Shown here in pieces: positions 13,505 through 58,734 of a stretch of 64,000 nucleotides of DNA. Positions within the stretch are counted from its first letter, which is position 1. Each line of letters opens with the position of its first letter. The notes beneath the pieces are model-generated. The model saw nothing but the letters and a program-made list of their open reading frames with translations. It ran no database searches and was not told where the DNA came from. The position numbers were made by a program, and so were the translations under genes. The DNA is from an uncultured virus (IMG/VR IMGVR_UViG_3300028196_000002) (lineage: Duplodnaviria; Heunggongvirae; Uroviricota; Caudoviricetes): IMG/VR virus record IMGVR_UViG_3300028196_000002, one strand, 5' to 3'.

Positions 13505-14113
13505 ATGAATGTAACTATAACAGAAAAACAACTCAAAAACCTGACTCAGGGATTATCTGAAGATTTAGACTATCATAAAGTCAGTGATGCATCACCTGAA
13601 AAAGACAACTATATTATGTCTCAAAAAAACGAAGAAGATGATGTAGATGAGGGTAGTCGAACACTCGCAAGAACACGTAAGAAAAGATTATTTTCTAAGG
13701 CGGAGATTATGGCAAACCCTAATAGATACAAACTACACGATAAAAAATTAAAAGGACTTAATGAGTCGGAAGTTCTAAAATACACAAACCCACTATCAGC
13801 AGAAATATCAAAAAGTTTAGATAAGAGAGGTAAGAACGGTAAACCAAGACAAAATATTTTTAAAATTATTACAAATAATACAACAAGATACTACTCCATA
13901 GTAGGAGATACTCTTATTACGGGTAAAAATAACTTAAACTTCAAAAGTGTAGTCAAGAAAAGTAACGGAGACATGATTTTTTATAGATATGTCAAAGGCG
14001 GTACAGAACCTCACAAAATAGACTTCAGTAAAATGAAAGATGTCTTGATGAGAATGTCTAAAGGACAATCCAAAATAAGTCCGGGTTTCGGTATATATTT
14101 TTACAAAGTTTAA
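13505..14113 (+). CDS. Late protein, TExQL N-terminus
   Basis: MNVTITEKQL; late box at 13494. Confidence 0.75.
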   Translation: MNVTITEKQLKNLTQGLSEDLDYHKVSDASPEKDNYIMSQKNEEDDVDEGSRTLARTRKKRLFSKAEIMANPNRYKLHDKKLKGLNESEVLKYTNPLSAEISKSLDKRGKNGKPRQNIFKIITNNTTRYYSIVGDTLITGKNNLNFKSVVKKSNGDMIFYRYVKGGTEPHKIDFSKMKDVLMRMSKGQSKISPGFGIYFYKV

Positions 14114-35739: not shown

Positions 35740-36421
35740 TAAAGAACATATGAGGTCAGACTTAATTAGTTCCTTAGTGAACAAAGAATTAAATGAAAGA
35801 TTTAGTTTAAATAACGATTTAAGACTCTTTTTAGAGAGTATGGAGGATCAAGAGGATGTGGAGAACGACGAAAAGGACTTAAAGACCTTAGACACCATTA
35901 TAGGTGTGTTAGATACGGTTAAGGATACCGACATGTCTGATGAGGAAATAGAACAAAGTATGGATGAAGGAATTCTCGATTCTTTAGGTTCTTTATTGGG
36001 TTTAACGGGGGATGTTAATAATCCAGGTGAAGGTGGTGTTGGAGATATTGCCTCAGGAACTGCAATGACTCAAATGAAAGAATGGTTGATACGTAAATTC
36101 TTAATAAATTTCATGGGAATGGATAGTGGAAAATTAGTCAGTTTCCTTTCAGGTTCCTTATCTGAACTTAGTATACCCGCATTACTTTCTATTGCAAGGG
36201 GTACAACTAACTGTAAAGAACATAGTGATGAAATTGCTGATGCATTTATGGTCGGTATATCAAGAATGATAGTAGGTGATGCAGAACAAGATTCTATGGG
36301 GTATAATGTATTAAAGAATGTGGGGGATGAATTCCTTAAAAATTCTAATGCAGGGGAATATATTGCAGATAAGGTATGTACGTTTGATCTCAGAGGTACT
36401 CTAAAAAGTTCATTCTCATAA
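35729..36421 (+). CDS. Hypothetical acidic protein
   Basis: 230 aa; terminator at about 36443-36469. Confidence 0.7.
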   Translation: MKNNKEHMRSDLISSLVNKELNERFSLNNDLRLFLESMEDQEDVENDEKDLKTLDTIIGVLDTVKDTDMSDEEIEQSMDEGILDSLGSLLGLTGDVNNPGEGGVGDIASGTAMTQMKEWLIRKFLINFMGMDSGKLVSFLSGSLSELSIPALLSIARGTTNCKEHSDEIADAFMVGISRMIVGDAEQDSMGYNVLKNVGDEFLKNSNAGEYIADKVCTFDLRGTLKSSFS

Positions 36422-36489
36422 GACTAAAAAAAAATGTTAATTAACCTCACGAATGTGGGGTTTTTTTTTGCCTAAACGATATTTATAGA

Positions 36490-36595
36490 TATGAAGTCGG
36501 TACTTTGGTCGGTATACGATTGATAAACGAAAATTAACGAAAAGGAGGTGATTTAATAATCTCGACAAGGAGGTCTAACGACCTCTTTGTTTGTT
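36490..36595 (+). ncRNA. Candidate late small RNA 1 (contains AAAGGAGGTGAT)
   Basis: Late box 36480-36487, own terminator GAGGTC-TAAC-GACCTC-TTTG, only a 10-codon ORF inside. Confidence 0.55.
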
Positions 36596-36871
36596 TACAA
36601 TACTTTGTAATTCGTTAAGTGTTTGTTTCTTCTGACTATCAATCTTGATTATTTTTTGAGTCTCGTATTTTTTCATGTATCTCTCCTCAAATGAACTACC
36701 GACACCTATTTCCACAATTGTAGATTCGTCAGGTACTAAAGGTTTTCTTTTTTTAGGTGTAATAATATCATCCACAAGAACATTTTCAAATACCTTTAAA
36801 TAATATTTGTCTTTCTTTCTATAGGTAATTTTATATACTACAACTACGGGTATCTTCATATTCTTATTCAT
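36575..36871 (-). CDS. Hypothetical protein
   Basis: Start trimmed to lie beyond the tmRNA terminator. Confidence 0.65.
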   Translation of the reverse strand: MNKNMKIPVVVVYKITYRKKDKYYLKVFENVLVDDIITPKKRKPLVPDESTIVEIGVGSSFEERYMKKYETQKIIKIDSQKKQTLNELQSIVNKQRGR

Positions 36872-36910
36872 AAAAAAAAGGGACCACTTAGGATCCCTTT
36901 TCACACTTAG

Positions 36911-37293
36911 TGGAGGTGGAGGGTTTCGAACCCTCGTCTTGTTAGTCTCAACTATAGAGGACTACACGTTTAGGATAGTATTTTCTAATACTCCAAAATT
37001 TGATGATCATTTTTTAACTATTGCAATCAACACCCAATAGACCATTCGATTTTAGATTCAATGGTGATCCATCCTTTTGGGAGTTTCTGTTTCTAGGTAT
37101 TTCACTCTCCAACCCATTGTAGAAATAACCTTAGGCTACTGCTACTTTAGAATCAACAGATACAAGACCCATTAATCCCATTTGTGAATAAACGTCTCCG
37201 TCTAAAAAACATCTCCGTAGATTTAAGTGATAGGAAATATCTCACTACGTGCCCTGTTATAATTGACTACTCCAATCAATTCCAGTCACCCCC
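36911..37293 (-). ncRNA. ssrA: tmRNA
   Basis: 5' GGGGGTG pairs with 3' CACCTCC-A including G3:U; T-arm GAGGGTTCGAAACCCTC; internal tag frame ending VAVA-stop; 383 nt. Confidence 0.9.
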
Positions 37294-37530
37294 TTACTTA
37301 ATGTCCTTAGAAGGTCCGTTACCATTTGAAGGTTTTCTTCTTGGTTTTCTTCTTGGTTTCTTCTTCTTAGGTTTTGTAAAATCCTCTTCGAATTTTTCAA
37401 ACTTTTCGACCTTAGGTTTTCTCTTTGGTCTTGGTTTTCTCTTTGGTTTAGGTTTGGAAACCTCAACAGGTTTCACTTCTTCTTGTTTTGAACCAAAAAG
37501 TCTTTTAAAAAAATCTATAATTTTCTTCAT
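37294..37530 (-). CDS. Small K/R/P-rich basic protein
   Basis: 78 aa; stop codon directly abuts tmRNA 5' end. Confidence 0.7.
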   Translation of the reverse strand: MKKIIDFFKRLFGSKQEEVKPVEVSKPKPKRKPRPKRKPKVEKFEKFEEDFTKPKKKKPRRKPRRKPSNGNGPSKDIK

Positions 37531-37583
37531 AATTTAAATGTTTATTATTAAATATAACCCTAAATAGGGTAAATGTAAAGGTT

Positions 37584-38258
37584 TTAAGAATTTGTACAAT
37601 CTAATGGGAAGTGTTTTTCATATAACGCCTCAAAAAATAGTTTATTCTTTAACCACTTCTTATCGGTCTCTCCGATAGATTTATGATACAGTTTTATTTT
37701 AGTGGTAACACCCACTTTTACCCCTTCTAAATGGTTTAACAAACATATGGGTAAGTCATAAAAGTGAAATCCTTTGAATTGATCGTCGAAAGTCTCCTTT
37801 ATTCTTTTTTTATTTACCATCATAAATAACCCATCGATTACTATGACTTCTTTGATGTTATCCCCAAAAGATTTAGAATACTTAGACATATATTTTTTAG
37901 GACCGTTTATGTGACCCACTTGTCCTTGCATATTTTCTAAATGTTGCCACCACTGACCCGATACTAACTTGTCAGTCCCTGCAAGACCTAAAATACCATA
38001 ATCAGGATTTCTATCAAATAGTTTTATAATTTTGGGGGTGAGGTTCTTAGTTTCAAATTCTAAATCATCATGAATAAAAACAACAATATCATTTTTAGAT
38101 TTCTCTAATCCTTCATTGTATATTTCTGTTAATGATCTATCTCCGTTATTTTCATAAACTAAGTATTCATTCTTAGGGTGGGAGAAGAACTTCTTTACAT
38201 GATCTAAATAATCTTGATCTATTTTACGTGTTGAATAAACTACTGTGATTGTATTCAT
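37584..38258 (-). CDS. GT2-like glycosyltransferase
   Basis: YNEG...VFIHDD...IDGLFM...FHFYD. Confidence 0.8.
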   Translation of the reverse strand: MNTITVVYSTRKIDQDYLDHVKKFFSHPKNEYLVYENNGDRSLTEIYNEGLEKSKNDIVVFIHDDLEFETKNLTPKIIKLFDRNPDYGILGLAGTDKLVSGQWWQHLENMQGQVGHINGPKKYMSKYSKSFGDNIKEVIVIDGLFMMVNKKRIKETFDDQFKGFHFYDLPICLLNHLEGVKVGVTTKIKLYHKSIGETDKKWLKNKLFFEALYEKHFPLDCTNS

Positions 38259-38343
38259 AAAAGGTATTTTAAATCAAAAGTCGGTTAAAAACCGACCCTT
38301 TCTCTAACTTGTAATTTAATAAAATATAAGTAAAATTATTTAA

Positions 38344-38523
38344 TTAATCAAGTGATGTTAAAATTTCTTGTAATGCTCGTTGATATAAGGGTATCATCAT
38401 ATCACTTGTTTTTATTTTAGGTTGATCCATTTTGGAGACGTGGTTACGTAACTTTTCCGTAAGACCCAATTTGTGTGCCTTGTAAAATATTTCCTCTATT
38501 TCATCACTACTTGACCAACCCAT
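38344..38523 (-). CDS. Hypothetical 59 aa protein
   Basis: Translated by hand: MGWSSSDEIEEIFYKAH... Confidence 0.55.
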   Translation of the reverse strand: MGWSSSDEIEEIFYKAHKLGLTEKLRNHVSKMDQPKIKTSDMMIPLYQRALQEILTSLD

Positions 38524-38551
38524 TACTTATAACTATGTGGTTTTTTATTTG

Positions 38552-38625
38552 TGGACCTTGAAGGACTCGAACCTTCGACCTACGCATTATGAGTGCGGTG
38601 CTCTAACCAACTGAGCTAAAAGTCC
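38552..38625 (-). tRNA. tRNA with CAT anticodon, probably Ile2 (lysidine type) rather than Met
   Basis: Cloverleaf GGACTTTTAGCTCAG...CTCATAA...GGTTCGAGTCC; acceptor stem resembles bacterial Ile2; no encoded CCA. Confidence 0.85.
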
Positions 38626-38630
38626 ATTTG

Positions 38631-38704
38631 TGAACCCGGTAGGATTCGAACCTACGACCGTCTCCTTAGAAGGGAGATGCTCTATCCAGCTGAGCTACGA
38701 GTCC
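38631..38704 (-). tRNA. tRNA-Arg(TCT)
   Basis: Anticodon arm TCTCC-CTTCTAA-GGAGA; T-loop GTTCGAAT. Confidence 0.92.
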
Positions 38705-38705
38705 A

Positions 38706-38800
38706 TAAAAAGAGAGGTTTCGGGTCTTTCGGGGTTACTACGATATAGAGGTTAACCCTTACCTTTTTCTATATCATTGTAGCTTCACTACCTCTCTTTA
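38706..38800 (-). ncRNA. Candidate structured RNA (6S-like long hairpin with central bubble)
   Basis: AAAGAGAGGT/ACCTCTCTTT outer stem; CTAC..TGATATAGA/TCTATATCGTAG inner stem; fills a tRNA spacer. Confidence 0.45.
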
Positions 38801-38801
38801 G

Positions 38802-38887
38802 TACCGAAGAACGGAATCGAACCGTCACGAACATTACTGTTCAAGGGATTTTAAGTCCCTCGTGTCTACCAATTCCACCACTTCGGC
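38802..38887 (-). tRNA. tRNA-Leu(TAA)
   Basis: AGGGA-CTTAAAA-TCCCT arm; long variable arm. Confidence 0.92.
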
Positions 38888-38999
38888 ATGAGGTAAATGT
38901 AAGAACGAATATTAATAAAAACAACCCCCTACCCCACATAAAACAAAAAAACCCCACATTTCTGCGGGGTTTACTATCATTCTTTAACTTTATTTATGA

Positions 39000-39323
39000 C
39001 TATTCAGTCAATAGTTGTTTAGATGTTTTCACGGGTTCACACCCATCCTTATCGATCTTAGTTAACCTATTCTCGAATTTATCAAACCTACTGTCAATAT
39101 GACGATATAGATTTTCTATTTGACTATTGAGGTCTTTCACCTCACCATCCACCCTAAGGTGAATTTCTCTTTGATTATTATCTAAATCTAATTGTGTTCC
39201 ATTTATGGCTTCCTCGAAACCATCGGAACGTTGTTTAACCTTAAATATACCTACTATAGCATACCCTAAACCGAGCACACCAATTGATGTAAACATACCT
39301 AAAACGAATTCTAAATTTTCCAT
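39000..39323 (-). CDS. TM + coiled-coil protein inside tRNA cluster
   Basis: N-terminal TM, heptad-like tail. Confidence 0.7.
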   Translation of the reverse strand: MENLEFVLGMFTSIGVLGLGYAIVGIFKVKQRSDGFEEAINGTQLDLDNNQREIHLRVDGEVKDLNSQIENLYRHIDSRFDKFENRLTKIDKDGCEPVKTSKQLLTE

Positions 39324-39367
39324 AATTTATAGTTTTAATTTAATTTTATGTCAAAGAACGATAGTAG

Positions 39368-39439
39368 TACTCCGTAGGAGAATCGAACTCCTATTACCAG
39401 GATGAAAACCTGGCGTCCTAACCGTTAGACGAACGGAGC
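39368..39439 (-). tRNA. tRNA-Glu(TTC)
   Basis: CCAGG-TTTTCAT-CCTGG arm; GTTCGATT T-loop. Confidence 0.92.
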
Positions 39440-39617
39440 TATAACCTCCAAATCCTCACCTTTTTAAGTGGTAACCAGAGTCGTATTGTTTTCAAAATAA
39501 GGTATTCCTTAAATTTTCTCACCATACATTATAAATAATACGAATTTTTTTTCAGATAATCAAATATTTATGGTAAGGTCAAGTAATTGATCGATAAAAA
39601 AGTAAAAAATTAAAGTT

Positions 39618-39851
39618 ATGGCATTTAAAGATTTATTTAAAGATGAAAACGATATCAACGAAAAATCGGTTGTGGGTTTTCTGTCATTCGCAATAATGGT
39701 TTTATTTGCGGTTGCAGATCTTTTAACGGGGTATTTTGGTAAAGACCTTGTAATAAACGAGTTTATCTACAATTCATTTGTAGTTATAACACTAGGTTCT
39801 TTCGGTATTGCTGAAGTTGGTAAAATATTTGGTAAGAAGGGACAAGAATAA
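39618..39851 (+). CDS. Putative holin (2 TM)
   Basis: Two hydrophobic helices, basic tail, directly upstream of endolysin. Confidence 0.6.
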   Translation: MAFKDLFKDENDINEKSVVGFLSFAIMVLFAVADLLTGYFGKDLVINEFIYNSFVVITLGSFGIAEVGKIFGKKGQE

Positions 39852-39861
39852 AAAAAATAGC

Positions 39862-40743
39862 ATGGTATTAAAAATTGGATCAAGAGGTAATGAAGTTAAA
39901 GAATTACAAGAGTTTCTTGGGATCGGTGCGGACGGTATTTTCGGTAAAGGAACTGAGTCGTCAGTTAAAGACTACCAAAAAATCAACGGTCTTACTGTTG
40001 ATGGTATTGTCGGTCCTTCCACTTGGGACTCTATGGGTTTGGCTACTACTGACAACTCAGAACAAACGTACACGACAGAAAACGGTTTAATCGTAAATAA
40101 ACACTTTTTACCGGTAGGTGAATACAAACAGGGACCAACTAATAAGGAGTATGTTTTTATACATCACACCGCAGGTTGGCACAATCCCTATAATTGTATT
40201 GACTCGTGGGGAAGAGACAGTAGAGGTGCGGTTGCGACCGAGTTCGTATTAGGTGGTCAATCGGTTAAAGGAAATGACACTAAATATGATGGTGAGATGG
40301 TACAAGCGTTCCCTGAAGGATCGTATGGTTGGCACTTAGGTAAAAATGGATCTCAACATATGCACACTCACTCGGTTGCTATTGAGGTGTGTAATTTTGG
40401 TTACATAAAGGATGGTAAGACATACGCGGGAACAAGGGTTGCGGACAATCAAATAGTGACACTCTCACAACCATTCAGGGGGTACAAAGATTGGCATAGA
40501 TATTCTGACAAACAAATTGAATCACTACACAAATGGATTCTTTGGACATCTGAGAGAGATGGTATTGATGTGCGTAAAGGTCTACCAGATCTTATTCGTA
40601 AGATAGGTGTATCTGCCTTTGAATTTCAAGATGATGCTTATTATGGAAGAGTCAAAGGACTGTGGACACATACTAATACACGTAAAGATAAATCCGATAT
40701 GTTTCCACAACAGGAACTTATTGATATGTTATTAAGTCTGTAA
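39862..40743 (+). CDS. Endolysin: PG-binding domain + N-acetylmuramoyl-L-alanine amidase
   Basis: DGIFGKGT/VDGIVGPSTW; IHHTAG, IEVCN, H...KSD. Confidence 0.85.
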   Translation: MVLKIGSRGNEVKELQEFLGIGADGIFGKGTESSVKDYQKINGLTVDGIVGPSTWDSMGLATTDNSEQTYTTENGLIVNKHFLPVGEYKQGPTNKEYVFIHHTAGWHNPYNCIDSWGRDSRGAVATEFVLGGQSVKGNDTKYDGEMVQAFPEGSYGWHLGKNGSQHMHTHSVAIEVCNFGYIKDGKTYAGTRVADNQIVTLSQPFRGYKDWHRYSDKQIESLHKWILWTSERDGIDVRKGLPDLIRKIGVSAFEFQDDAYYGRVKGLWTHTNTRKDKSDMFPQQELIDMLLSL

Positions 40744-40764
40744 GTAAACTATATAGATTGGTGT

Positions 40765-41970
40765 ATGAAAAATTTAATAAGATTTATCGTATTCTCTATT
40801 CTGTGCACCAACGCATATGGACAATCCACAACTACAGTAAACTTACGTTCACTTAAGACTCACTATGGTGGGAGCCAATCAGGTCAGAACTATTCACAAA
40901 ATGCTAACAACCATACAGAATTTGATGCAATGGTTAATCTTGCTGATGCCGGTACTACACTTTATTTAGATACAACTGTAGATATAACAAGTTACGAAGG
41001 ACCAAGAGGTGGTAATCATACTCCTTATCAACTATGGAATCCACCAAGATGGAGCTACAATCCTAGCAACGGTGGCCAAAGATATGCAATTATCTATACA
41101 GGTTGGTTTAAACCTAACAAAACAGGTACATACGGGTTCAGAACATTCACCGATGACTCACATGAGTTTATGATTAAAGGTATTGGTAAAACTAATGATA
41201 TAGTTACTAAATATTATGGTTGGAATACATGGGCTTATGGTACGGCAACACTAGACAAAAATACATGGTATGAGTTTGAATATAGAATTCAAAATTTTGG
41301 TGGTATAGGTGCCGCCAATTTTCAATATAAAATACCAAGTAGTAATACATACAACCAACTTAGTCCTAATCATCCATTTGCGGAATGGTCTGCTACCGAC
41401 CCTAATGCTGTACCAATCACGGCAAGTGGTTATATTAAAGGGGCAGAAGAACAAGGTATTGCAGGACAAACAGTTTATCTAAAGACACAGAATAAAAATC
41501 AAGTTGGTTTTTCATATACAACTCAAGCAACAACAACAACAGATTCAAATGGGTATTATTCTTTTAATACCACATTAAATTACAACGATTACGATTTTAC
41601 AATAGATATTAATCCATCATTAGGAACACTCACAACCTCAGACATTAATTGGTTTCAAGATAGGTTATTATCTGACACATTCAGTTCAAAGGATTATTGG
41701 AGAATGGATGTGAATAATACAGGTTCGTTCTCTGTATCTGACATTTATCTAATGCACCAAAGAAGGTTGGGTAACATAACCAGTTTTATTGGTGGAGGAC
41801 AAGAAATATGGAACACAAATTCCTGGCAAAACCCGACCATTTGGCCGGCAGTTGTTGCGGATTCAGACGATAAAACGATATACGTTGGTTACGGATCATG
41901 GTCTCTATTTGATTTAGCCAATGGGAATCAGACAACATTCTATTTATTAAGAGTAGGACATAAAAATTAA
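40765..41970 (+). CDS. Secreted PA14-domain protein with dockerin-like C-terminus
   Basis: Signal peptide; YTGWFKP..TGTYGFRTFTDD; DVNNTGSFSVSDI. Confidence 0.7.
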   Translation: MKNLIRFIVFSILCTNAYGQSTTTVNLRSLKTHYGGSQSGQNYSQNANNHTEFDAMVNLADAGTTLYLDTTVDITSYEGPRGGNHTPYQLWNPPRWSYNPSNGGQRYAIIYTGWFKPNKTGTYGFRTFTDDSHEFMIKGIGKTNDIVTKYYGWNTWAYGTATLDKNTWYEFEYRIQNFGGIGAANFQYKIPSSNTYNQLSPNHPFAEWSATDPNAVPITASGYIKGAEEQGIAGQTVYLKTQNKNQVGFSYTTQATTTTDSNGYYSFNTTLNYNDYDFTIDINPSLGTLTTSDINWFQDRLLSDTFSSKDYWRMDVNNTGSFSVSDIYLMHQRRLGNITSFIGGGQEIWNTNSWQNPTIWPAVVADSDDKTIYVGYGSWSLFDLANGNQTTFYLLRVGHKN

Positions 41971-41987
41971 AAAAATAAAAAAAAACG

Positions 41988-43082
41988 ATGAAACTTAAAA
42001 ACATTTTTCTAACACTATCTTTGCTAATTGGTACGATGACTGTCTTCGGGCAGACGACTTCACCTGATGCAACTAAACCTTACATTATCTTTGATTCAAC
42101 TTATAATTTAGAATCTACATCATCAAGTTCAAACACAACATTTGACATTTATTACGATAATACGTCGGGTAATGATGTTAAAGGTATTCAATTCTCTTTC
42201 AACTATGATAAAGATGTATTTGATGAACCAACTTTAACGTATAACAACACATCAGGACCTATTGGATATTTATCCTATGATGTTGATTCAACAAACGGGG
42301 TTGTAAAAGTAGTATGGGTTTATGACGGAGCAACCACCACCTTCAATATGACTGCTGGTAATATGTTCACAGTAGATATCCCTTTTTTAAATAGTTATAC
42401 AAACGCATCAGTAAATGATGTAGATTTCACTACTGATCTTACCGCTTATTATGTAAAGACCGATGGAACTGATGGTATATTAGGTACCTCAGATAATGGT
42501 GGTAACTTTATAGAACCTGCATTTGATTATGTTGCAACTATCTTAAATAGTGGAACAAATCCAGCTGAATCTATTCCTGTAATTTTACAAAAATCATCGG
42601 ATGGTTCTTCTTGGACAGATGTCGATACAAAAACTACCGGATCAGATGGGAAGGCAACATTCTCAGAAAATTTAGACCAAGATTATTGGCAGATCAGACT
42701 TAAGATTGCAAGTGGATTAGATGCAAGTACAGCACTATCAGCTGCAGATGCTAATATGATCGCACAAATTGCTGCGGGAGTACAAACAACGTCAGGTATA
42801 CAATTTTATACGGGTAATCCAAATCAAACAAATGGTGTAACAGCATCAGATTCGTATATGGTATTCGCAAGGTTAGCTCAAGGTAACTCAACTTACCCGT
42901 CTAACCCAGATGTTTTATTCTTTACTGAAGCACAATATAATACTATTAATGGTTCAAGTTCAGACCAATCAAGTTCTATTCCAGGTCTAACGGAATTTTT
43001 ATCTCCATTAATTAATAGCACAACTACGGGTAACTTCTATATGTTAATATTAGGAGACGCCAACGGAACGGGTTTAAATTAA
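41988..43082 (+). CDS. Secreted cohesin-like + dockerin-like protein
   Basis: Signal peptide; VKGIQFSFNYDKDVF; LSAADA and NPNQTNGVTASD; C-terminal LGDANGT. Confidence 0.65.
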   Translation: MKLKNIFLTLSLLIGTMTVFGQTTSPDATKPYIIFDSTYNLESTSSSSNTTFDIYYDNTSGNDVKGIQFSFNYDKDVFDEPTLTYNNTSGPIGYLSYDVDSTNGVVKVVWVYDGATTTFNMTAGNMFTVDIPFLNSYTNASVNDVDFTTDLTAYYVKTDGTDGILGTSDNGGNFIEPAFDYVATILNSGTNPAESIPVILQKSSDGSSWTDVDTKTTGSDGKATFSENLDQDYWQIRLKIASGLDASTALSAADANMIAQIAAGVQTTSGIQFYTGNPNQTNGVTASDSYMVFARLAQGNSTYPSNPDVLFFTEAQYNTINGSSSDQSSSIPGLTEFLSPLINSTTTGNFYMLILGDANGTGLN

Positions 43083-43083
43083 T

Positions 43084-43821
43084 ATGAGAATATTACTACT
43101 AACTTTAGTATTAGTATTCACAACAAGTGTACAGTCTCAGGTCGTATTTAACGTACCTGAGATCGATGTACCCGTAAGTGATTATATTAACCTACCTGTA
43201 GAAATTGAAACTGCGGGTGAGATTGTTGGTAGTCTTGAATTTGCATTGAACTACGACCCAAACTATTTAGAGTTTGTGTCAATCACCATAACACCTAAAG
43301 CACAAGAGTGGTTAACATATACCATGGATTGGGAAGGTGAAACCGTTAGATGGGGAGGTTATGACGCTTCCTTTGGTAATTTTACTATAAGTAATACGAC
43401 AGAATTATTTACGGTGAGGTTTAGGGTTACTAATCAAGATTGGGATACAATTCCAATTACGATAGGTAGAAAAACTGCCGGTACAGAATTAGGATGGGAT
43501 GTTGAGGTTGAAAATACTGATGGGTATGTAAATAAACGATCGATGCCTTTTAATACCTCACCAACTGACGGTATTTATGGGATTGTTTATCCTGTACCAA
43601 CAAAAGGTCCAATTACATTTGACCTAACAGTACCAGATAATGGGTATTATGTGATTAGAGTATTGAATTATGGTGGATCAGAATTTCTAAAACAAAGAAA
43701 GAAGTTCTTTGCTGGATGGGTACAATTTCAAATGGATTTATCCTCATTACCACAAGGTGTTTATTTATTACATATTACCAATGGACAATTTGTCAAAACA
43801 TTTAAAACAATAAAACAATGA
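43084..43821 (+). CDS. Cohesin-like protein with T9SS type-A C-terminal sorting domain
   Basis: Signal peptide; VGSLEFALNYDPNYLEF; YPVPT...DLSSLPQGVYLLHI...KTIKQ. Confidence 0.8.
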   Translation: MRILLLTLVLVFTTSVQSQVVFNVPEIDVPVSDYINLPVEIETAGEIVGSLEFALNYDPNYLEFVSITITPKAQEWLTYTMDWEGETVRWGGYDASFGNFTISNTTELFTVRFRVTNQDWDTIPITIGRKTAGTELGWDVEVENTDGYVNKRSMPFNTSPTDGIYGIVYPVPTKGPITFDLTVPDNGYYVIRVLNYGGSEFLKQRKKFFAGWVQFQMDLSSLPQGVYLLHITNGQFVKTFKTIKQ

Positions 43822-44081
43822 GTAAGAATAAAGGATTTTTTTCGGAAATTAAAAACCAAATAAAAACAGGTATTGGTTTAGTTATAACAGCGGGTTTCGG
43901 ACTATTAATTGCTAACATGCAATCAATATTTGAACCTAAAGAAGATGTTGTAGAACAGACACCAACGATAGAACAAACAATTAGTATCCCACCATCAACT
44001 AAAGATACAATAGTGATATCTAAGTCTATAAAAATAGAACCAGTTAAACCTAAAAAAGAAGAGGGAGAAATAACATGGTAA
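43818..44081 (+). CDS. Small single-TM protein
   Basis: One TM helix then P/T/K-rich linker. Confidence 0.65.
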   Translation: MSKNKGFFSEIKNQIKTGIGLVITAGFGLLIANMQSIFEPKEDVVEQTPTIEQTISIPPSTKDTIVISKSIKIEPVKPKKEEGEITW

Positions 44082-44779
44082 GAGTTTTATTAATTATATC
44101 GATGTTATTAAGTTTTACCGCTAATGCTCAATTAGGTAAAACGGAGACAGAAAACTATAAAGGTAAGTTTGAACAAGATGCCGATATCGATGAGGTGTCA
44201 GATTATATGTTGGACTATCAATTACCTATTCAAGTATTAAACATTGGATTCACACCAGAACTATATGAATTTTATCCTGAACTAAGGGAGAATAGAGTGG
44301 GATTGGGTGTGAGTAATATTACATTATCTTATTTAGAATGGACCGATAGATTTTTATTTACAGAGGATAAAGAAGACATTAAACAGAGAATGGTTAAACA
44401 ACATAAGGCATCGGCAAAAGGTATATCATCAAATGATATTAAGGTTGTTGGTAATGTTGTATTGGCAGAATATTTTGTTTACGTCGAAATATACGATTAT
44501 TCGGTATCTGAAGAAGAGGAAGTTACAATTGACGGGGTGAAAACCGTACTAAAAACCATTATTGGAATGCAAGTAAGATTTGTTAATGCTGAGACTGGTG
44601 TTATTTTTACTGGAAGTGGAAGTGGCGATGCAATAACAATTAAAAGAACTAAAGTTGGTTCTGTGAATAATGTTAAGTTTAACAAATCAACAATCGGTAT
44701 TGCAACTAAAAAGGCGTTAGAATCTGGAACGGCCCATATTGTAAAAAGAATGATTAAACGTGGGATATTTGAAGAATAA
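44075..44779 (+). CDS. CsgG/TolB-N-like secreted protein
   Basis: Signal peptide; G.GVSNI...TDRF...AEYFVYVEIYDY...QVRFVNAETG. Confidence 0.6.
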   Translation: MVRVLLIISMLLSFTANAQLGKTETENYKGKFEQDADIDEVSDYMLDYQLPIQVLNIGFTPELYEFYPELRENRVGLGVSNITLSYLEWTDRFLFTEDKEDIKQRMVKQHKASAKGISSNDIKVVGNVVLAEYFVYVEIYDYSVSEEEEVTIDGVKTVLKTIIGMQVRFVNAETGVIFTGSGSGDAITIKRTKVGSVNNVKFNKSTIGIATKKALESGTAHIVKRMIKRGIFEE

Positions 44780-46115
44780 AATAGTAAGTGTACTTTTATT
44801 TTTATTACCATTGGTCAGTTATGGTCAGTGGTCTTATACGTTTACAGATCCTTGTACTTTAAATCAACAGACAATTCAAATGGGTTCAAGTGATGAGATC
44901 GTTTTGAATTATTTTGGTAATGTTCAGACATTTACACAACCAGACTTCACTAACGGTACTTTTGATTCATGGATGAGTTTGGTTACTCAGTCTAACTCTT
45001 CAAATCCATGTCAAAGTGTTACTCAAATCATTACAAATAATACAAATGCAATAATAGTTCAAAATACTATTACAGTAATCACAAATATAATGAGTGTTTT
45101 AGGTGGTGATATGTTACCACAGGCACTCTCCTCATCAGGAGTTCCCGTGGCGGAAGCTATCGATAATGCAAATAAAAAGAAGAAAAAGAAGAAGAAAAAG
45201 GAAACTAAATCCGATAACCCCAATAATAGTTCCGATAACGAAAATGGGGGTGAAGATAAAAGTAGTTCCGAACAGTCCAACGGGGAGAGTTCAAATGAAA
45301 CCAACGGTAGTCAAAGTGGTACTAACGAAAACAGTAGTCAAGGTAGTACTAACGAAAGTGGTACATCAACAGAAGGTACTACAACAAAAACAGAGGATGA
45401 ATCAAAAGAAGGTGGATTGGGCATGTCTTTAGCCAATTCTATTTCAAATGCGGTTGATGGTGGAGAATCAGATAATAAAAACAGAGGTTCATTAATCGCA
45501 TCAGGTGATATTGTGGTTATTGATAATCAAGATAACTCAAATGGTCGTCAAGTAAAGGTAGTAGGTTCTATTACTAGTGCGAACACAAAAAAGAGTAGGG
45601 TTCAAGGAGCACTATTTACATACACAACCGTGACGAACGATTTTAGTTTAACTTTCTACAAATCATGGATTAACCCAAATAGAACATTTAATCTAGTAGG
45701 TGCAAATACCACAATGACTAATTTTAACCAAAACCATTTAAACACAACAACTGTATTAGAATCGTTTAAATTCGGTAAAAAGAAATTTACAGGAATGATG
45801 GGTGTTAATTTCACAATAGGTAAATTGGGTAAAAGAGAACTACAAAATATATCCGCAGTTAGTGGTGTCCATAGAAATTTCAGAGTAACACCAAAGATTA
45901 CAACATCTGCATTGATATTAGGAGTCTATTCTCCATTCACACAATACTATGAAGGTCAATGGTGGGATCCTGGTGTTCTAATAGTACCATTTAGTTCTTG
46001 GGATATTCAAATTACAAAAACATTTAAATACAACATTAGTTTTACTGGTGTTTGGCAATCGGGCGGAAACGCATTAAACTACCAAATACTAACTGGTGGT
46101 AAAATTAGATTCTAA
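44760..46115 (+). CDS. Secreted protein with S/N/T linker and C-terminal beta-barrel-like domain
   Basis: Signal peptide; amphipathic strands; terminal Phe (GGKIRF). Confidence 0.6.
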   Translation: MGYLKNKIVSVLLFLLPLVSYGQWSYTFTDPCTLNQQTIQMGSSDEIVLNYFGNVQTFTQPDFTNGTFDSWMSLVTQSNSSNPCQSVTQIITNNTNAIIVQNTITVITNIMSVLGGDMLPQALSSSGVPVAEAIDNANKKKKKKKKKETKSDNPNNSSDNENGGEDKSSSEQSNGESSNETNGSQSGTNENSSQGSTNESGTSTEGTTTKTEDESKEGGLGMSLANSISNAVDGGESDNKNRGSLIASGDIVVIDNQDNSNGRQVKVVGSITSANTKKSRVQGALFTYTTVTNDFSLTFYKSWINPNRTFNLVGANTTMTNFNQNHLNTTTVLESFKFGKKKFTGMMGVNFTIGKLGKRELQNISAVSGVHRNFRVTPKITTSALILGVYSPFTQYYEGQWWDPGVLIVPFSSWDIQITKTFKYNISFTGVWQSGGNALNYQILTGGKIRF

Positions 46116-46117
46116 TT

Positions 46118-46555
46118 ATGAAAAATTTATTAATACTCTTATTATTTCCAACCCTCCTGTTTTCACAGGTTGATTGTTATTCGATTAAATCAGTAACCAC
46201 TGAAATTGAAATGGAGGAAATAAGTAAAAGAAGAATCACGTTTGGTATCAAACAAATGATGGAGGATATTATCTCAGATAAGTACGATTTATGTATGAAT
46301 GGTAAACCCGTTAATGTTGTCGTTCAATCAATAGAGTCTCCACAAACAGGAATTCAAATCGGTCCGTGGACAAAGGTGAGTAAAAAAACAATAGTTACTT
46401 TATTAATCTATATGGATGGGAAAGTAATTGAAGTGGAGGGGAAGTCTAAATCTACAGTGAAGTCCACGTTTATAGACTTACAAAACGATGATATACCTTT
46501 CAGTAAAACAACGTTTTCATCTGCAATTAAAAAGGCCATTGAAAAGGGGTTATAA
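46118..46555 (+). CDS. Secreted hypothetical protein
   Basis: Signal peptide; C-terminus (FSKTTFSSAIKKAIE) resembles that of 44075 (FNKSTIGIATKKALE). Confidence 0.65.
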   Translation: MKNLLILLLFPTLLFSQVDCYSIKSVTTEIEMEEISKRRITFGIKQMMEDIISDKYDLCMNGKPVNVVVQSIESPQTGIQIGPWTKVSKKTIVTLLIYMDGKVIEVEGKSKSTVKSTFIDLQNDDIPFSKTTFSSAIKKAIEKGL

Positions 46556-46658
46556 AAAAACCCCAACAAGGTTTGCTGGGGTTTTAGGTCTATACTGGTT
46601 TCAACACCAATAATTTAACGAGAAAAAACGAAAAGGTATTCGACAAAGAGTACCTTTG
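46554..46658 (-). ncRNA. Candidate late small RNA 2
   Basis: Minus-strand late box at 46662-46669 with no ORF downstream; ends in bidirectional terminator 46554-46585. Confidence 0.55.
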
Positions 46659-46700
46659 ATGTATAAATATATATATTTTTTAAAAAAGTCAAGTTTTTAG

Positions 46701-48716
46701 TTAAATGAGGGGTATATTTTTTGATAATTCCACATTTCCTTCACTAATTTTTAGGATAACATCAGATTCCTCCGTAATGTCTCCTTCTAAAATCTTATCA
46801 CTTATAAAATCCTCACACAAGTTTTGAATGATTCGTTTTATTGGTCTCGCACCGTACTCTTCTTCAGAATTCCTATTTAAAACTTCCTGAGCCACACTAC
46901 GATCAAATTTAATTTTGTAGTTACTCTCAGTTAATCTCTTAGATAATTTATTTAATTCAATCATAACAATTTTTCTAAGTGATTTGTCTTTTAATTTATT
47001 AAATACAATAATATCGTCAATCCTATTAAGGAATTCAGGACTAAACTTTTGTTTTAGAGATTTTTTAATAATTGAGTCCTTAACCTTAGCTCTATCATCA
47101 TCTGATGTAAATCCAACTCCACCACCGAAGTCTACGACTTTCTTAGCACCTACGTTAGATGTCATAATTATTAAAGTATTCGTAAAATTAACTTTCCTCC
47201 CAAAAGAGTCCGTCAATCTACCCTCATCTAATATCTGTAACAATATGTTAAAGACATCTTTGTGTGCCTTTTCGATTTCATCAAACAAAACAACTGAGAA
47301 TGGATTATTTTTAATCTTTTCAGTTAGTTGACCACCTTCCTCGAATCCAACATACCCTGGAGGTGACCCAATTAGTTTAGATACGTTGTGTTTTTCCATG
47401 AACTCACTCATATCAACCCTTATAATTTTATCGGGATCACCAAACAATGTGTTTGCCAAAGTCTTAGCCAAATGTGTTTTACCCACACCTGTAGATCCTA
47501 AGAACATAAAAGAACCGATAGGTTTGTTATGTCCCTTAACACCAACTCTATTTCTTCTTATAGATTTAGAAATTATCTCAACCGCCTCATCTTGACCAAT
47601 AACGTTTTTAGATATTGTTTTTTCTAACGATAATAAAGATTTGGTTTCTTTAGTGTCTAATTTATTAATTGGTACTCCCGTTATGTTAGTAACAATATTG
47701 TAAACATCATCCACTGTAATGGGTTTTCTATTTAATTGTTGTTCGTCATTCCACTTCTTTTTTTCGTTATCTAACTTCTTAAGAATTTTTCTTTCCTGAT
47801 CTCTAAGGTTTGCCGCCTTCTCATAATCTTGATTCTTAACGACATCTAATTTTTTGAGTCTAACGGATTCACAACTTTTCTTTAGTTTCTCAATAGAATC
47901 AGGTATTTTTACGTTTATCTTTTTTTCAGAACCCAACTCATCTAATACATCAATTGCCTTGTCGGGAAACTGTTTATCCGTAATAAATCTTTTACATAAC
48001 GTAACTATTGTTTCTATAACATCCTTTTGATAGGAAACTCTATGGAAATCTTCATACGAATCTTTCAAGTTTTTTAAGATGTCAACCGTCTCAACAGTAG
48101 TTGGTTCATTCAGTATTATTTTTTGAAATCTCCTTACGAGTGCACCATCTTTTTCTATATTCTTTTTATATTCATCAAAAGTGGTTGCCCCAATACATTG
48201 TATCTCACCCCTCGCAAGTGCGGGTTTTAATATGTTTGCGGCATCCATAGAACCTGAAGCGTTACCCGCACCAACCATCGTGTGTATTTCATCAATAAAG
48301 ATAACAACGTTAGGTGCGTCTTGTAATTCATTTAAAATTACCTTAATCCTTTCCTCAAACTGACCTCTGTATTTTGTACCCGCAACTAAAGATGTTAAGT
48401 CTAACGACATAATTCTTTTATCTAAAAGATTTGTGGGACAGTTACCTGTACTGATTAGTAGTGCGAGTTTTTCAACTAATGCGGACTTACCAACACCAGC
48501 ATCACCTACAACGATAACATTATTCTTTTTTTTACGAGATAAAATTTGTGCAATTCTAAGTACTTCTTTATCCCTACCTATAATAGGGTCTATATCACCT
48601 TCTAACGCTAATTGTGTTAGATCACGTGAAAAATTATCAAGTACTGGTGTCTTACTACCTTTCTTACTCCTCTTACTTTGGGATTGAGTTCCCTCTTCGA
48701 AAAAATCTACTGACAT
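46701..48716 (-). CDS. clpC: ClpC-like AAA+ ATPase lacking the N-terminal domain
   Basis: Two Walker A ([16 protein letters not shown]), UVR middle domain [15 protein letters not shown] ClpP-docking loop. Confidence 0.9.
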
Positions 48717-48897
48717 ATATAAAAAGTGTTTTAATTAAAGATACATAAAATTGTTCCAAAAGTCAAATACATTAGACTTCAATTTAATATTGTCATTGTG
48801 TCATGTATAATTGTTATACCTGTGACAGAATGTCTCATTTATGGTATTGGTATCCAATTTGATATTATGTGTATTATAAAAACTAAAAATTTAAAGT

Positions 48898-49272
48898 ATG
48901 ATTTTATTTAGAAATGATCCATGGATCAAATTTGTTGATGAGTTTTTTGACTCTAAAACTGAGACCACTCAACAAAGTGGTGTTGTTAACGTACAAAGAC
49001 AGGAAAATGAGGAAAGGTATGAATTACAGTTTCTTGTGCCGGGTCTCAATAAAAAGGACATTAACATTGTCGTAGAAGAAGACTTTCTAAAGGTTAAATA
49101 TAATAAACCTGAAGACTCTTCATCTTATATGGGTACCTTTGAAAGAACTTACAGTTTACCCGAAGATGTCGATGATAAAAAAATTGACGCTAAGGTTAAA
49201 GATGGGATATTATATATAAATTTCCCTAAGACTAAGAAAAAAAGTAAACAAAGAACCATTTCAGTTTTATAA
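48898..49272 (+). CDS. Small heat shock protein (Hsp20)
   Basis: VPGL.KKDI...FERTYSLPEDVD...A...DGIL. Confidence 0.9.
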   Translation: MILFRNDPWIKFVDEFFDSKTETTQQSGVVNVQRQENEERYELQFLVPGLNKKDINIVVEEDFLKVKYNKPEDSSSYMGTFERTYSLPEDVDDKKIDAKVKDGILYINFPKTKKKSKQRTISVL

Positions 49273-58542: not shown

Positions 58543-58734
58543 TTATTGCTCGTTTTCGTCGTTCAGTTTCTGTATATACACCGCCTTTTGTTTTTGTAGT
58601 CTTTTTTTGACGGATGGTTTAGTGAATTGTTTATTCTCTCTGAGTTTATTGATTTGTTTTACGTTTCTTACTTTTCTACGCAATTTCTTTATCGCTTTCT
58701 CAATACCACCTTTGTCTACTTTTATTATTAGCAT
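58543..58734 (-). CDS. rpsU: Ribosomal protein bS21
   Basis: MLIIKV...IEKAIKKLRRK...FTKPSVKKR; own late box at 58752-58759. Confidence 0.9.
   Translation of the reverse strand: MLIIKVDKGGIEKAIKKLRRKVRNVKQINKLRENKQFTKPSVKKRLQKQKAVYIQKLNDENEQ

Follow-up and report, generated by a model that had tools for sequence, protein, structure and literature searches.

Two conserved opposite-strand RNA genes of an uncultured giant phage encode candidate small RNAs predicted to anneal in trans

Two short non-coding units, here termed RNA1 and RNA2, lie 10 kb apart on opposite strands of a 64,000-nucleotide (nt) stretch of DNA from an uncultured virus (IMG/VR record IMGVR_UViG_3300028196_000002; this whole stretch is referred to as the window). 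They probably encode independent, trans-encoded phage small RNAs (sRNAs) that anneal with each other and behave as an sRNA and its anti-sRNA, or sponge, with mutual titration. At the level of sequence comparison, relatives of the window reveal two separate units with covarying hairpins of their own, opposite strands of reading, near-invariant shared blocks, and one position that co-varies between the two molecules. Little is known of phage small RNAs, and the ones studied mostly act on host RNAs, whereas both partners of this pair are phage-encoded and conserved, and the comparative support for their pairing comes from abundant uncultured giant phages of marine Bacteroidota.

Locus 1 is flanked by a plus-strand gene ending at 36421 (terminator 36443-36472) and a minus-strand gene ending at 36575. 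Along the plus strand it reads TATTTATA, a hairpin, GAUAA, AACGAAAAUUAACGAAAAGGAGGUG, a small hairpin, UCGACAAGGAG running into a GC stem, and UUUGUUUGUUU. Locus 2 lies between a plus-strand gene ending at 46555 and a minus-strand gene for a Clp-type ATPase ending at 46701, and its minus-strand order is TTGACT, TATTTATA, a hairpin with a CUCUUUGUCGA loop, CCUUUUCGUUUUUUCUCGUU, a second hairpin, GACC, and a strong terminator at 46585-46554. The parts of both units are as follows.

36480..36487, plus strand: promoter-like box TATTTATA of RNA1, with a core that is invariant in relatives
36491..36597, plus strand: RNA1, about 107 nt, non-coding; start placed by a box +3 nt rule, end at the terminator U-tract
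36495..36521, plus strand: hairpin P1, loop UUGGUC at 36505-36510 (block 1, GGUC, at 36507-36510), from folding and covariation
36526..36545, plus strand: block 2, AACGAAAAUUAACGAAAAGG, single-stranded in RNA1, with its complement at RNA2 46636-46617
36538..36550, plus strand: invariant Shine-Dalgarno (SD)-like GAAAAGGAGGUG, which contains AAAGGAGGU
36545..36563, plus strand: putative hairpin P2 (GAGGU / AUCUC), arms invariant, loop differing in length and sequence
36562..36572, plus strand: block 3, UCGACAAGGAG, complementary to the loop of the RNA2 5' hairpin; 36565 is the co-varying purine (R)
36564..36597, plus strand: intrinsic terminator of RNA1, stem 36564-36575 / 36580-36591 and then UUGUUU, from covariation
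46554..46658, minus strand: RNA2, about 105 nt, non-coding, and the 3' end of any read-through Clp messenger RNA (mRNA), from covariation
46687..46692, minus strand: TTGACT, a hexamer with a putative -35 role, just past the Clp stop codon at 46701-46703
46662..46669, minus strand: promoter-like box TATTTATA of RNA2, with TATTTAT in 66/66 sequences
46632..46657, minus strand: 5' hairpin A (AAAGGTA/TACCTTT stem), loop 46640-46650 = CUCUUUGUCGA, the block-3 complement; 46643 is the co-varying pyrimidine (Y)
46617..46636, minus strand: CCUUUUCGUUUUUUCUCGUU, the block-2 complement, within which CCTTTTCG is invariant in 66/66 sequences
46595..46610, minus strand: hairpin B, loop GUUGAA; all 5 of its 5 pairs covary, with G·U intermediates in the RNA2 sense
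46554..46585, minus strand: RNA2 terminator; one pair is G·U in 50/66 sequences and would be A·C on the other strand

A preliminary description, made from the window alone, had proposed two units of about 105 nt with boxes on opposite strands, terminators and no real open reading frame (ORF), and its coordinates and strings all proved correct. Where it had placed terminators at 36570-36590 and 46554-46585, we find hairpins at 36564-36591 (plus strand, with a U-tract to 36597) and 46554-46585, and the third block does lie in the RNA2 loop of the AAAGGTA/TACCTTT stem at 46632-46657. The three shared colinear blocks that it reported are likewise all present: block 1 reads GGTCGGTATAC at 36507 and GGTCTATAC at 46587, block 2 (at 36526 and 46617) is identical at 17 of 20 positions, and block 3 is found at 36562 and 46640. 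Pairing through block 1 is the part of that claim that did not stand well, being weak.

Relatives were collected by scanning IMG/VR for a two-block pattern, which gave at least 120 loci, the window and locus L025 being added before sorting. At least 24 matches were RNA1-like (at least 21 distinct sequences), at least 81 were RNA2-like (at least 66 distinct sequences), and at least 18 were chance coding matches. A looser pattern, AACGNNAAN{1,3}AACGAAAAGG, had returned 118 mostly chance loci and was replaced by the two-block pattern. The alignments hold 20 RNA1 and 66 RNA2 sequences, and later counts for RNA1 use 30 distinct sequences.

Both RNAs carry structure that covaries in a strand-specific manner. 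P1 with its UUGGUC loop is the minimum-energy fold in 29 of the 30 distinct RNA1 sequences, its stem sequences differ between relatives in the way of covariation, and it is more stable in the plus sense than as the reverse complement in 27/30. The RNA1 terminator stem also covaries (for instance, one pair is GC in 12, GU in 5 and AU in 3 sequences) with G·U in the plus sense, and it shows many G·U pairs and 2 A·C. P2 is the exception; the helix itself is unproven because the 20/20 sequences hold no covariation. In the three helices of RNA2, 99.1% of cells are paired and 9 of 21 pairs have two-sided changes, a result that 0/500 shuffles match, and a hand tally counts about 80 G·U cells vs 2 A·C. 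What does not change in the RNA1 alignment is the box, the UUGGUC loop of P1, GAUAA, AACGAAAAGGAGGU and AUCUCGRCAAAG; in that of RNA2 it is the box, CUUUGYCGA, CCUUUUCG, the GUUGAA loop and GACC. Blocks 2 and 3 sit, as the folds place them, in a linker or a loop and are nearly invariant across the 30 RNA1 and 66 RNA2 sequences, the block-2 core AACGAAAAGG being kept in 29 of the 30.

Opposite-strand transcription into complementary RNAs, as first suggested for the window, is upheld by the conserved orientation of boxes and terminators (20 RNA1 and 66 RNA2 sequences) and by the large excess of G·U over A·C. The same strand-specific asymmetry in the covarying helices excludes same-strand paralogues. 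Since RNA1 is read on the plus strand and RNA2 on the minus strand, the shared DNA blocks would be complementary RNA segments.

The evidence for pairing between the molecules comes from 22 genomes in which both genes were found, namely the window; the L025/L214 pair; four contigs on which the two genes occur together; 7 of 35 records that were searched; 5 of 20 records picked for RNA2 = C; 2 of 13 further records; one with a divergent RNA1 reached via block 3; and one with a divergent RNA2 reached via a covariance model. When RNA1 UCG[R]CAAAG is set against RNA2 CUUUG[Y]CGA, the variable pair is A-U in 12 genomes, G·U in 3, G-C in 7 and A·C in 0, so that the compensatory change foreseen between the loci is found. 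RNA1 has G in all seven genomes with RNA2 C vs 3 of the 15 with RNA2 U (hand-computed hypergeometric P ~7e-4). A rough tree of both RNAs, with this site masked, puts G-C at three or more separate positions, and in one case it sits within a group of G·U genomes. The predicted energies agree: the duplex in the window reaches -50.1 kcal/mol vs -30.6 ± 4.5 for 100 shuffles (minimum -44.6), and cofolding, which had been named as a check, beats the separate folds by 6.5-13.2 kcal/mol in 5/5 pairs tried. In the window clade, an extra complementary copy of block 2 occurs in both RNAs.

Several observations weigh against an annealing pair or soften the case for it. Only one position of the RNA1-RNA2 interface co-varies, and the rest is uninformative because it is invariant. 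Five of the 22 pairs were selected on RNA2 = C, the L302/L288 pair duplicates the sequence of another, and the genomes are related. For RNA1's own terminator stem, too, the purine changes in its block 3 are neutral. Five of the six distinct RNA1 forms in the window clade retain an A·C mismatch in the extra block-2 copy, the G069 RNA2 has one U fewer and so a bulge, and L301 has an A·G mismatch within the block-2 core. Block 1 offers about four certain pairs (GGUC/GACC) plus A-U pairs across a bulge. A search for downstream target sites in the window and four large genomes found none, and when further family members or mRNA sites were sought in the four large genomes, the other motif matches were all coding. 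Finally, the one exact metatranscriptome contig over RNA2, described below, fits read-through or DNA as well as an sRNA.

In the window, AACGAAAAGG occurs exactly at the two loci only; with up to one mismatch it occurs 14 times vs 6.6 expected, and 0/100 shuffles reach 14. TCGACAARGAG is also exact at only the two loci in the 64 kb. Each of four large records has one RNA1 and one RNA2, and the two genes are about 4 to 35 kb apart across genomes. The blocks stay invariant while the protein encoded by the RNA2-adjacent Clp gene falls to ~64-70% identity. A search of the window against Rfam 15 passed only four transfer RNAs (tRNAs) and a transfer-messenger RNA (tmRNA), the best E-values at the two loci being 0.98 and 0.042 and the bit scores falling far short of the gathering thresholds. 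The loci in the window and the main-clade RNA1 and RNA2 had no blastn match among GenBank phages. No description of either RNA was found in Rfam 15, the GenBank phages or the literature searched, in keeping with the initial impression that this was not a described family, and RNA1 and RNA2 appear to be two new RNA families.

There is no conserved ORF in either RNA, and only short spurious ORFs overlap the units. RNA1 of the window clade opens with AUG and a 10-codon frame, MKSVLWSVYD* (36491-36523, plus strand), which would be leaderless if read. As a gene this frame was set aside; it is probably not coding because it is missing in the main clade and begins with ACG in L303. Mini-ORFs starting from the RNA1 AUC were likewise dismissed, their ends being inconsistent and not conserved. 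A type I toxin-antitoxin system was rejected on the ground that neither partner has a conserved small toxin ORF. The 8-mer AAGGAGGT has two copies in the 64-kb window, both in RNA1; the second lies within the terminator stem (36567-36574, plus strand) and is specific to the window clade.

The surroundings of the two genes are of use for judging what they may do, and the following features bear on it.

36908..37293, minus strand: tmRNA gene, complete and one-piece (Rfam RF00023, 66.1 bits, model positions 1-374; ARAGORN)
38551-39439, minus strand: four tRNA genes (Met-CAT, Arg-TCT, Leu-TAA, Glu-TTC), between the RNA1 and RNA2 loci
46701..48716, minus strand: gene for a Clp-type double AAA+ ATPase (Pfam AAA_2, ClpB_D2-small, AAA_lid_9)
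58543..58734, minus strand: gene for ribosomal protein bS21, 63 amino acids (aa) (Pfam PF01165, 38.8 bits, cut-off 27)

RNA2 is flanked by the Clp homologue, directly 3' of it, in 61/65 loci, and no Clp gene was found near RNA1 (0/32 loci). The tmRNA gene is convergent with RNA1 in 14 of 22 loci of relatives, as well as in the window and L025, and neither tRNA nor tmRNA was found beside RNA2 (0/20 loci). The tag encoded by the phage tmRNA is VDSKVAVA in the window and differs in other clades (…ATSNVAVA, …LATSKVAA). The phage tmRNA was considered as a partner of the small RNAs and rejected, the duplex energies being -41.2 vs -44.8 ± 4.4 for shuffles with RNA1 and -41.8 vs -46.0 ± 4.1 with RNA2. 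A two-piece (permuted) tmRNA was rejected as well, given the complete one-piece tmRNA beside RNA1 and the lack of excess complementarity. Also on this side is a gene for a family-2 glycosyltransferase (37584-38258, minus strand), with a homologue near RNA1 in 15/32 loci. The Clp ATPase (minus strand) and an Hsp20 (plus strand) are divergent neighbours at 46701-49272, a chaperone and quality-control cluster adjoining RNA2. On the other side of RNA2, its terminator may also end the convergent plus-strand gene 46118-46555, which encodes a 145-aa protein. Among 21 loci encoding a homologue of this protein, 12 (L012-L022, L024) have other genes downstream and RNA2 is not there. The RNA2 covariance model found no match in G070-G073, G075 and G076, phages of smaller size or another kind that share the 145-aa protein, and one model-negative record of this kind is 63% complete at 112 kb, which makes it a smaller phage. 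With the same model, 7 of 8 RNA1-bearing sequences gave no match; these are fragments, so absence is not implied.

The window is phage DNA with a distant T4-type terminase, at most 28% identical to that of any GenBank phage, a portal protein gene, and a GC content of about 33%. The nearest record, G001, is an 11.9-kb fragment 100% identical to the window rather than a relative. The largest related IMG/VR record has 335,630 bp and is 100% complete by CheckV, and genomes of the RNA-bearing phages are ~300-335 kb. The bS21 gene, ~12 kb from RNA2 in the window, is also found in 6/6 large related records; it has a TATTTATT box and then an SD-less leader of ~17 nt. By record title, Bacteroidota account for all of the best 80 bacterial relatives of the phage bS21, most of them Flavobacteriaceae (rpsU), for which reason the host is probably a marine flavobacterium (Flavobacteriales, a group with SD-less genes). 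In gene set, aquatic origin and likely host group the window resembles the "moraphages", whose core, according to passages of the paper that describes them, comprises T4-like structural genes, ClpA and a sigma factor, some members having Hsp20, with Bacteroidota as predicted hosts (PMC12619734). The lineage may be that of the moraphages, known so far by its proteins only; the words tmRNA and small RNA are absent from the main text of that paper (PMC12619734).

The box TATTTATA stands at 36480-36487 (plus strand) and 46669-46662 (minus strand), and its TATTTAT core is invariant in 20/20 aligned RNA1 loci and 66/66 RNA2 sequences; the TTGACT upstream of the RNA2 box is kept in many, not all, of the 66 loci. 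Of 86 crude ORF calls in the window, 19 have TATTTAT[AT] on the coding strand in the 45 nt upstream, vs 5 on the opposite strand, and the distances from box to ATG fall mainly into two groups, 3-4 nt and 14-19 nt. It is thus plausible, judging from its placement, that TATTTAT[AT] is a phage promoter element. Many genes start 3-4 nt past it (for example at 13505, 29588, 30508, 54075 and 55911), implying leaderless mRNAs, and others have leaders of ~14-19 nt. A generic scan for sigma-70 promoters and terminators added nothing, with 43 promoter-like sites vs 50.6 expected in the window. The units had been taken at the outset for late transcription units. The T4 late promoter is TATAAATA, and a unit of T4 late type is rejected on sequence. 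The resemblance is that of an AT-rich, extended -10-like octamer with no obligatory -35, in a phage that is distantly T4-like; the difference is that the box is TATTTAT[AT] instead of TATAAATA and fronts many kinds of genes at fixed distances.

Among 20 sequencing runs that matched part of the stretch, 16 are recorded as RNA, and none contains more than 0.23 of its sampled words. Four marine metatranscriptomes were compared as assembled contigs, which carry neither strand nor transcript ends. Only the tmRNA and tRNAs are covered by contigs at high depth, perhaps in part from other organisms. On the tmRNA the depth is very high, with some internal skips in the contigs that probably reflect related tmRNAs of other organisms. 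One exact 262-nt contig of depth 9 (46587-46848) covers RNA2 to the foot of its terminator together with the 3' end of Clp, and RNA1 is covered by a single divergent 172-nt contig at depth 3.4.

How would the two RNAs work? Annealing may start between the single-stranded AAACGAAAAGG of RNA1 and CCUUUUCGUUU of RNA2 and extend through pairing of RNA1 UCGRCAAAG with the loop of the RNA2 5' hairpin, each RNA retaining one internal hairpin in the duplex. The result would be mutual titration of sRNA and anti-sRNA sponge, possibly with co-degradation. The 3' end of the Clp mRNA could represent a second form of the RNA2 partner. Because RNA2 follows the Clp stop with no terminator in between, the Clp mRNA is expected to finish with RNA2 sequence; RNA1 could then act on this mRNA too, which would connect the tmRNA-side and Clp-side loci. 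RNA genes beside tmRNA and Clp genes hint at control of a phage-borne protein quality-control module.

Other explanations share part of this evidence. RNA2 might be merely the 3' untranslated region (UTR) of the Clp mRNA, with RNA1 as a trans-acting sRNA that controls its stability or 3' processing. We consider this unlikely, although the position of RNA2 directly 3' of Clp in nearly all loci, the lack of any hairpin or terminator between the Clp stop and RNA2, and the contig spanning the Clp 3' end through RNA2 to the terminator foot all speak for it. However, TATTTAT stands between the Clp stop and RNA2 in every one of the 66 sequences, at the usual promoter distance to the 5' hairpin, which argues for an independent start too, and a free sRNA and a UTR form are compatible with each other. 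It is also very doubtful that RNA1 and RNA2 make up one two-piece structural RNA or ribonucleoprotein, in which three intermolecular helices together with P1, P2 and B would serve as a protein scaffold. Such an assembly would suit the colinear order of the three blocks, the single copy of each RNA per genome, and the invariant loops that pairing leaves unexplained (UUGGUC and GAUAA in RNA1; GUUGAA and GACC in RNA2), but helix 1 is very weak, the genes lie 4 to 35 kb apart in differing promoter contexts, and no structured RNA family matches. Lastly, the shared blocks might be a DNA-level signal, such as a site for a phage DNA-binding protein at both loci, in which case RNA pairing would be irrelevant. 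The blocks are identical as double-stranded DNA, and 19 of the 22 genomes have the same base at the variable site in both loci (12 A/A, 7 G/G). Even so, blocks 2 and 3 are separated by 1-4 bp in RNA2 loci vs 12-20 bp in RNA1 loci, the three discordant genomes all have RNA1 G with RNA2-locus A (G·U) and never the reverse (A·C), the blocks fall in loops or single-stranded parts of both RNAs, and the four large genomes hold no additional non-coding copies; this explanation appears extremely improbable.

The SD-like motif of RNA1 raises a different possibility. Jha et al. present AAAGGAGGU as the core of a "perfect SD" facing the 16S ribosomal RNA tail ACCUCCUUUCU, in passages of PMC7797042, and according to passages of PMC9976891 the Flavobacteriales have extended SDs of 9-13 bp at rpsU and essentially nowhere else, with autoregulation via bS21-less ribosomes. 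In RNA1, AAAGGAGGU can form 9 consecutive Watson-Crick pairs with that tail, which is taken from PMC7797042 and may not be the host's. GAAAAGGAGGU / GAAAAGGAGGT is present in 30/30 distinct RNA1 sequences, and one further relative has GAAAGGGGGU (GGGGGU for GGAGGU). GGAGGT lies 6-9 nt before ATG in 67/77 distinct bacterial rpsU leaders, and 5-11 nt (mode 7) before the invariant AUC in RNA1, where no rpsU-type start codon with an ORF was found; AUC takes that place and no conserved ORF follows. An outside partner seems to constrain GGAGGU, because the facing bases of RNA2 vary and the P2 arms are invariant while other helices covary. RNA1 is thus like the extended SD of rpsU, as passages of PMC9976891 and PMC7797042 portray it, in being A-rich and then AAAGGAGGU(G), with at least nine pairs to the 16S tail in an otherwise SD-less setting. 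It is unlike an rpsU leader in having neither start codon nor ORF, in being slightly weaker, and in holding the motif partly within a predicted hairpin.

One hypothesis is that RNA1 mimics the host rpsU initiation region and, lacking a start codon, captures the freed anti-SD of bS21-less 30S subunits alongside the phage bS21, with RNA2 covering the 5' half of the SD as antidote or timer. We regard this as distinctly unlikely. It would account for an SD that is invariant in all 30 sequences of phages whose genes are SD-less (among 69 crude gene calls in the window, a 5-nt SD precedes none and a 4-nt SD precedes 3), and for a constraint on GGAGGU other than RNA2. It is also consistent with the near-confinement of strong extended SDs to rpsU in passages on Flavobacteriales (PMC9976891), with the bS21 genes of the window and 6/6 large relatives, whose nearest bacterial relatives are Bacteroidota, and with the similar spacing of GGAGGT before ATG in host rpsU leaders and before AUC in RNA1. 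On the other hand, the RNA1 SD ranks third by energy in the window, where about ten coding sites score -13 or better, and its duplex at -13.5 kcal/mol is weaker than those of bacterial rpsU leaders, which average -15.7. In the large genomes the 8-mer AAGGAGGT is about as frequent as chance predicts, the predicted fold sequesters GGAGGU in P2, GGGGGU replaces it in one relative, and the host itself is only inferred. RNA2 reaches -13.4 against sampled rpsU leaders compared with -17.4 for an in-gene control, and block 3 occurs in 0/79 leaders; host rpsU mRNA as an RNA2 target accordingly found no support in the 79 bacterial loci. That RNA1 is a ribosome decoy that would trap bS21-less 30S and shut off host bS21 autoregulation, with phage bS21 made from an SD-less mRNA and RNA2 switching the decoy off, seems to us quite improbable. 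If true, the decoy would be a phage-encoded RNA circuit reprogramming specialised ribosomes. With an rpsU-grade SD and a phage bS21 gene both present, and a host group in which ribosomes disregard SDs, viral manipulation of specialised ribosomes becomes testable now by assays that exist for Flavobacterium johnsoniae.

We therefore return to the annealing pair of sRNA and anti-sRNA, which has parallels among known systems. AgvB and AsxR of enterohaemorrhagic Escherichia coli are prophage anti-sRNA sponges, and SroC is a chromosomal sponge for GcvB. As in those cases, a phage-borne small RNA would use a conserved single-stranded stretch to pair with, and titrate, another small RNA. AgvB, AsxR and SroC target host sRNAs, whereas here both partners are phage genes kept across a jumbo-phage lineage; further differences are that no Hfq-type mRNA target is known, that the probable host belongs to the Bacteroidota, and that the interface consists of 2-3 separate helices. 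The c4 antisense RNA of phages P1 and P7 acts in trans on the a'/b' sites of the ant operon. It shares with the present pair the use of two short separated blocks by a phage small RNA for pairing with a phage transcript made elsewhere. The target of c4 is an mRNA whose translation is blocked, while the partner here is an ORF-less, terminator-bounded RNA of ~105 nt. sRNAs of the MicL and DapZ type lie at the 3' end of a protein gene and have their own internal promoter. RNA2 resembles them in sharing a terminator with the upstream Clp gene and having its own promoter-like box just past the stop codon; unlike them, it has this box after, not inside, the coding region, and its known partner is another sRNA.

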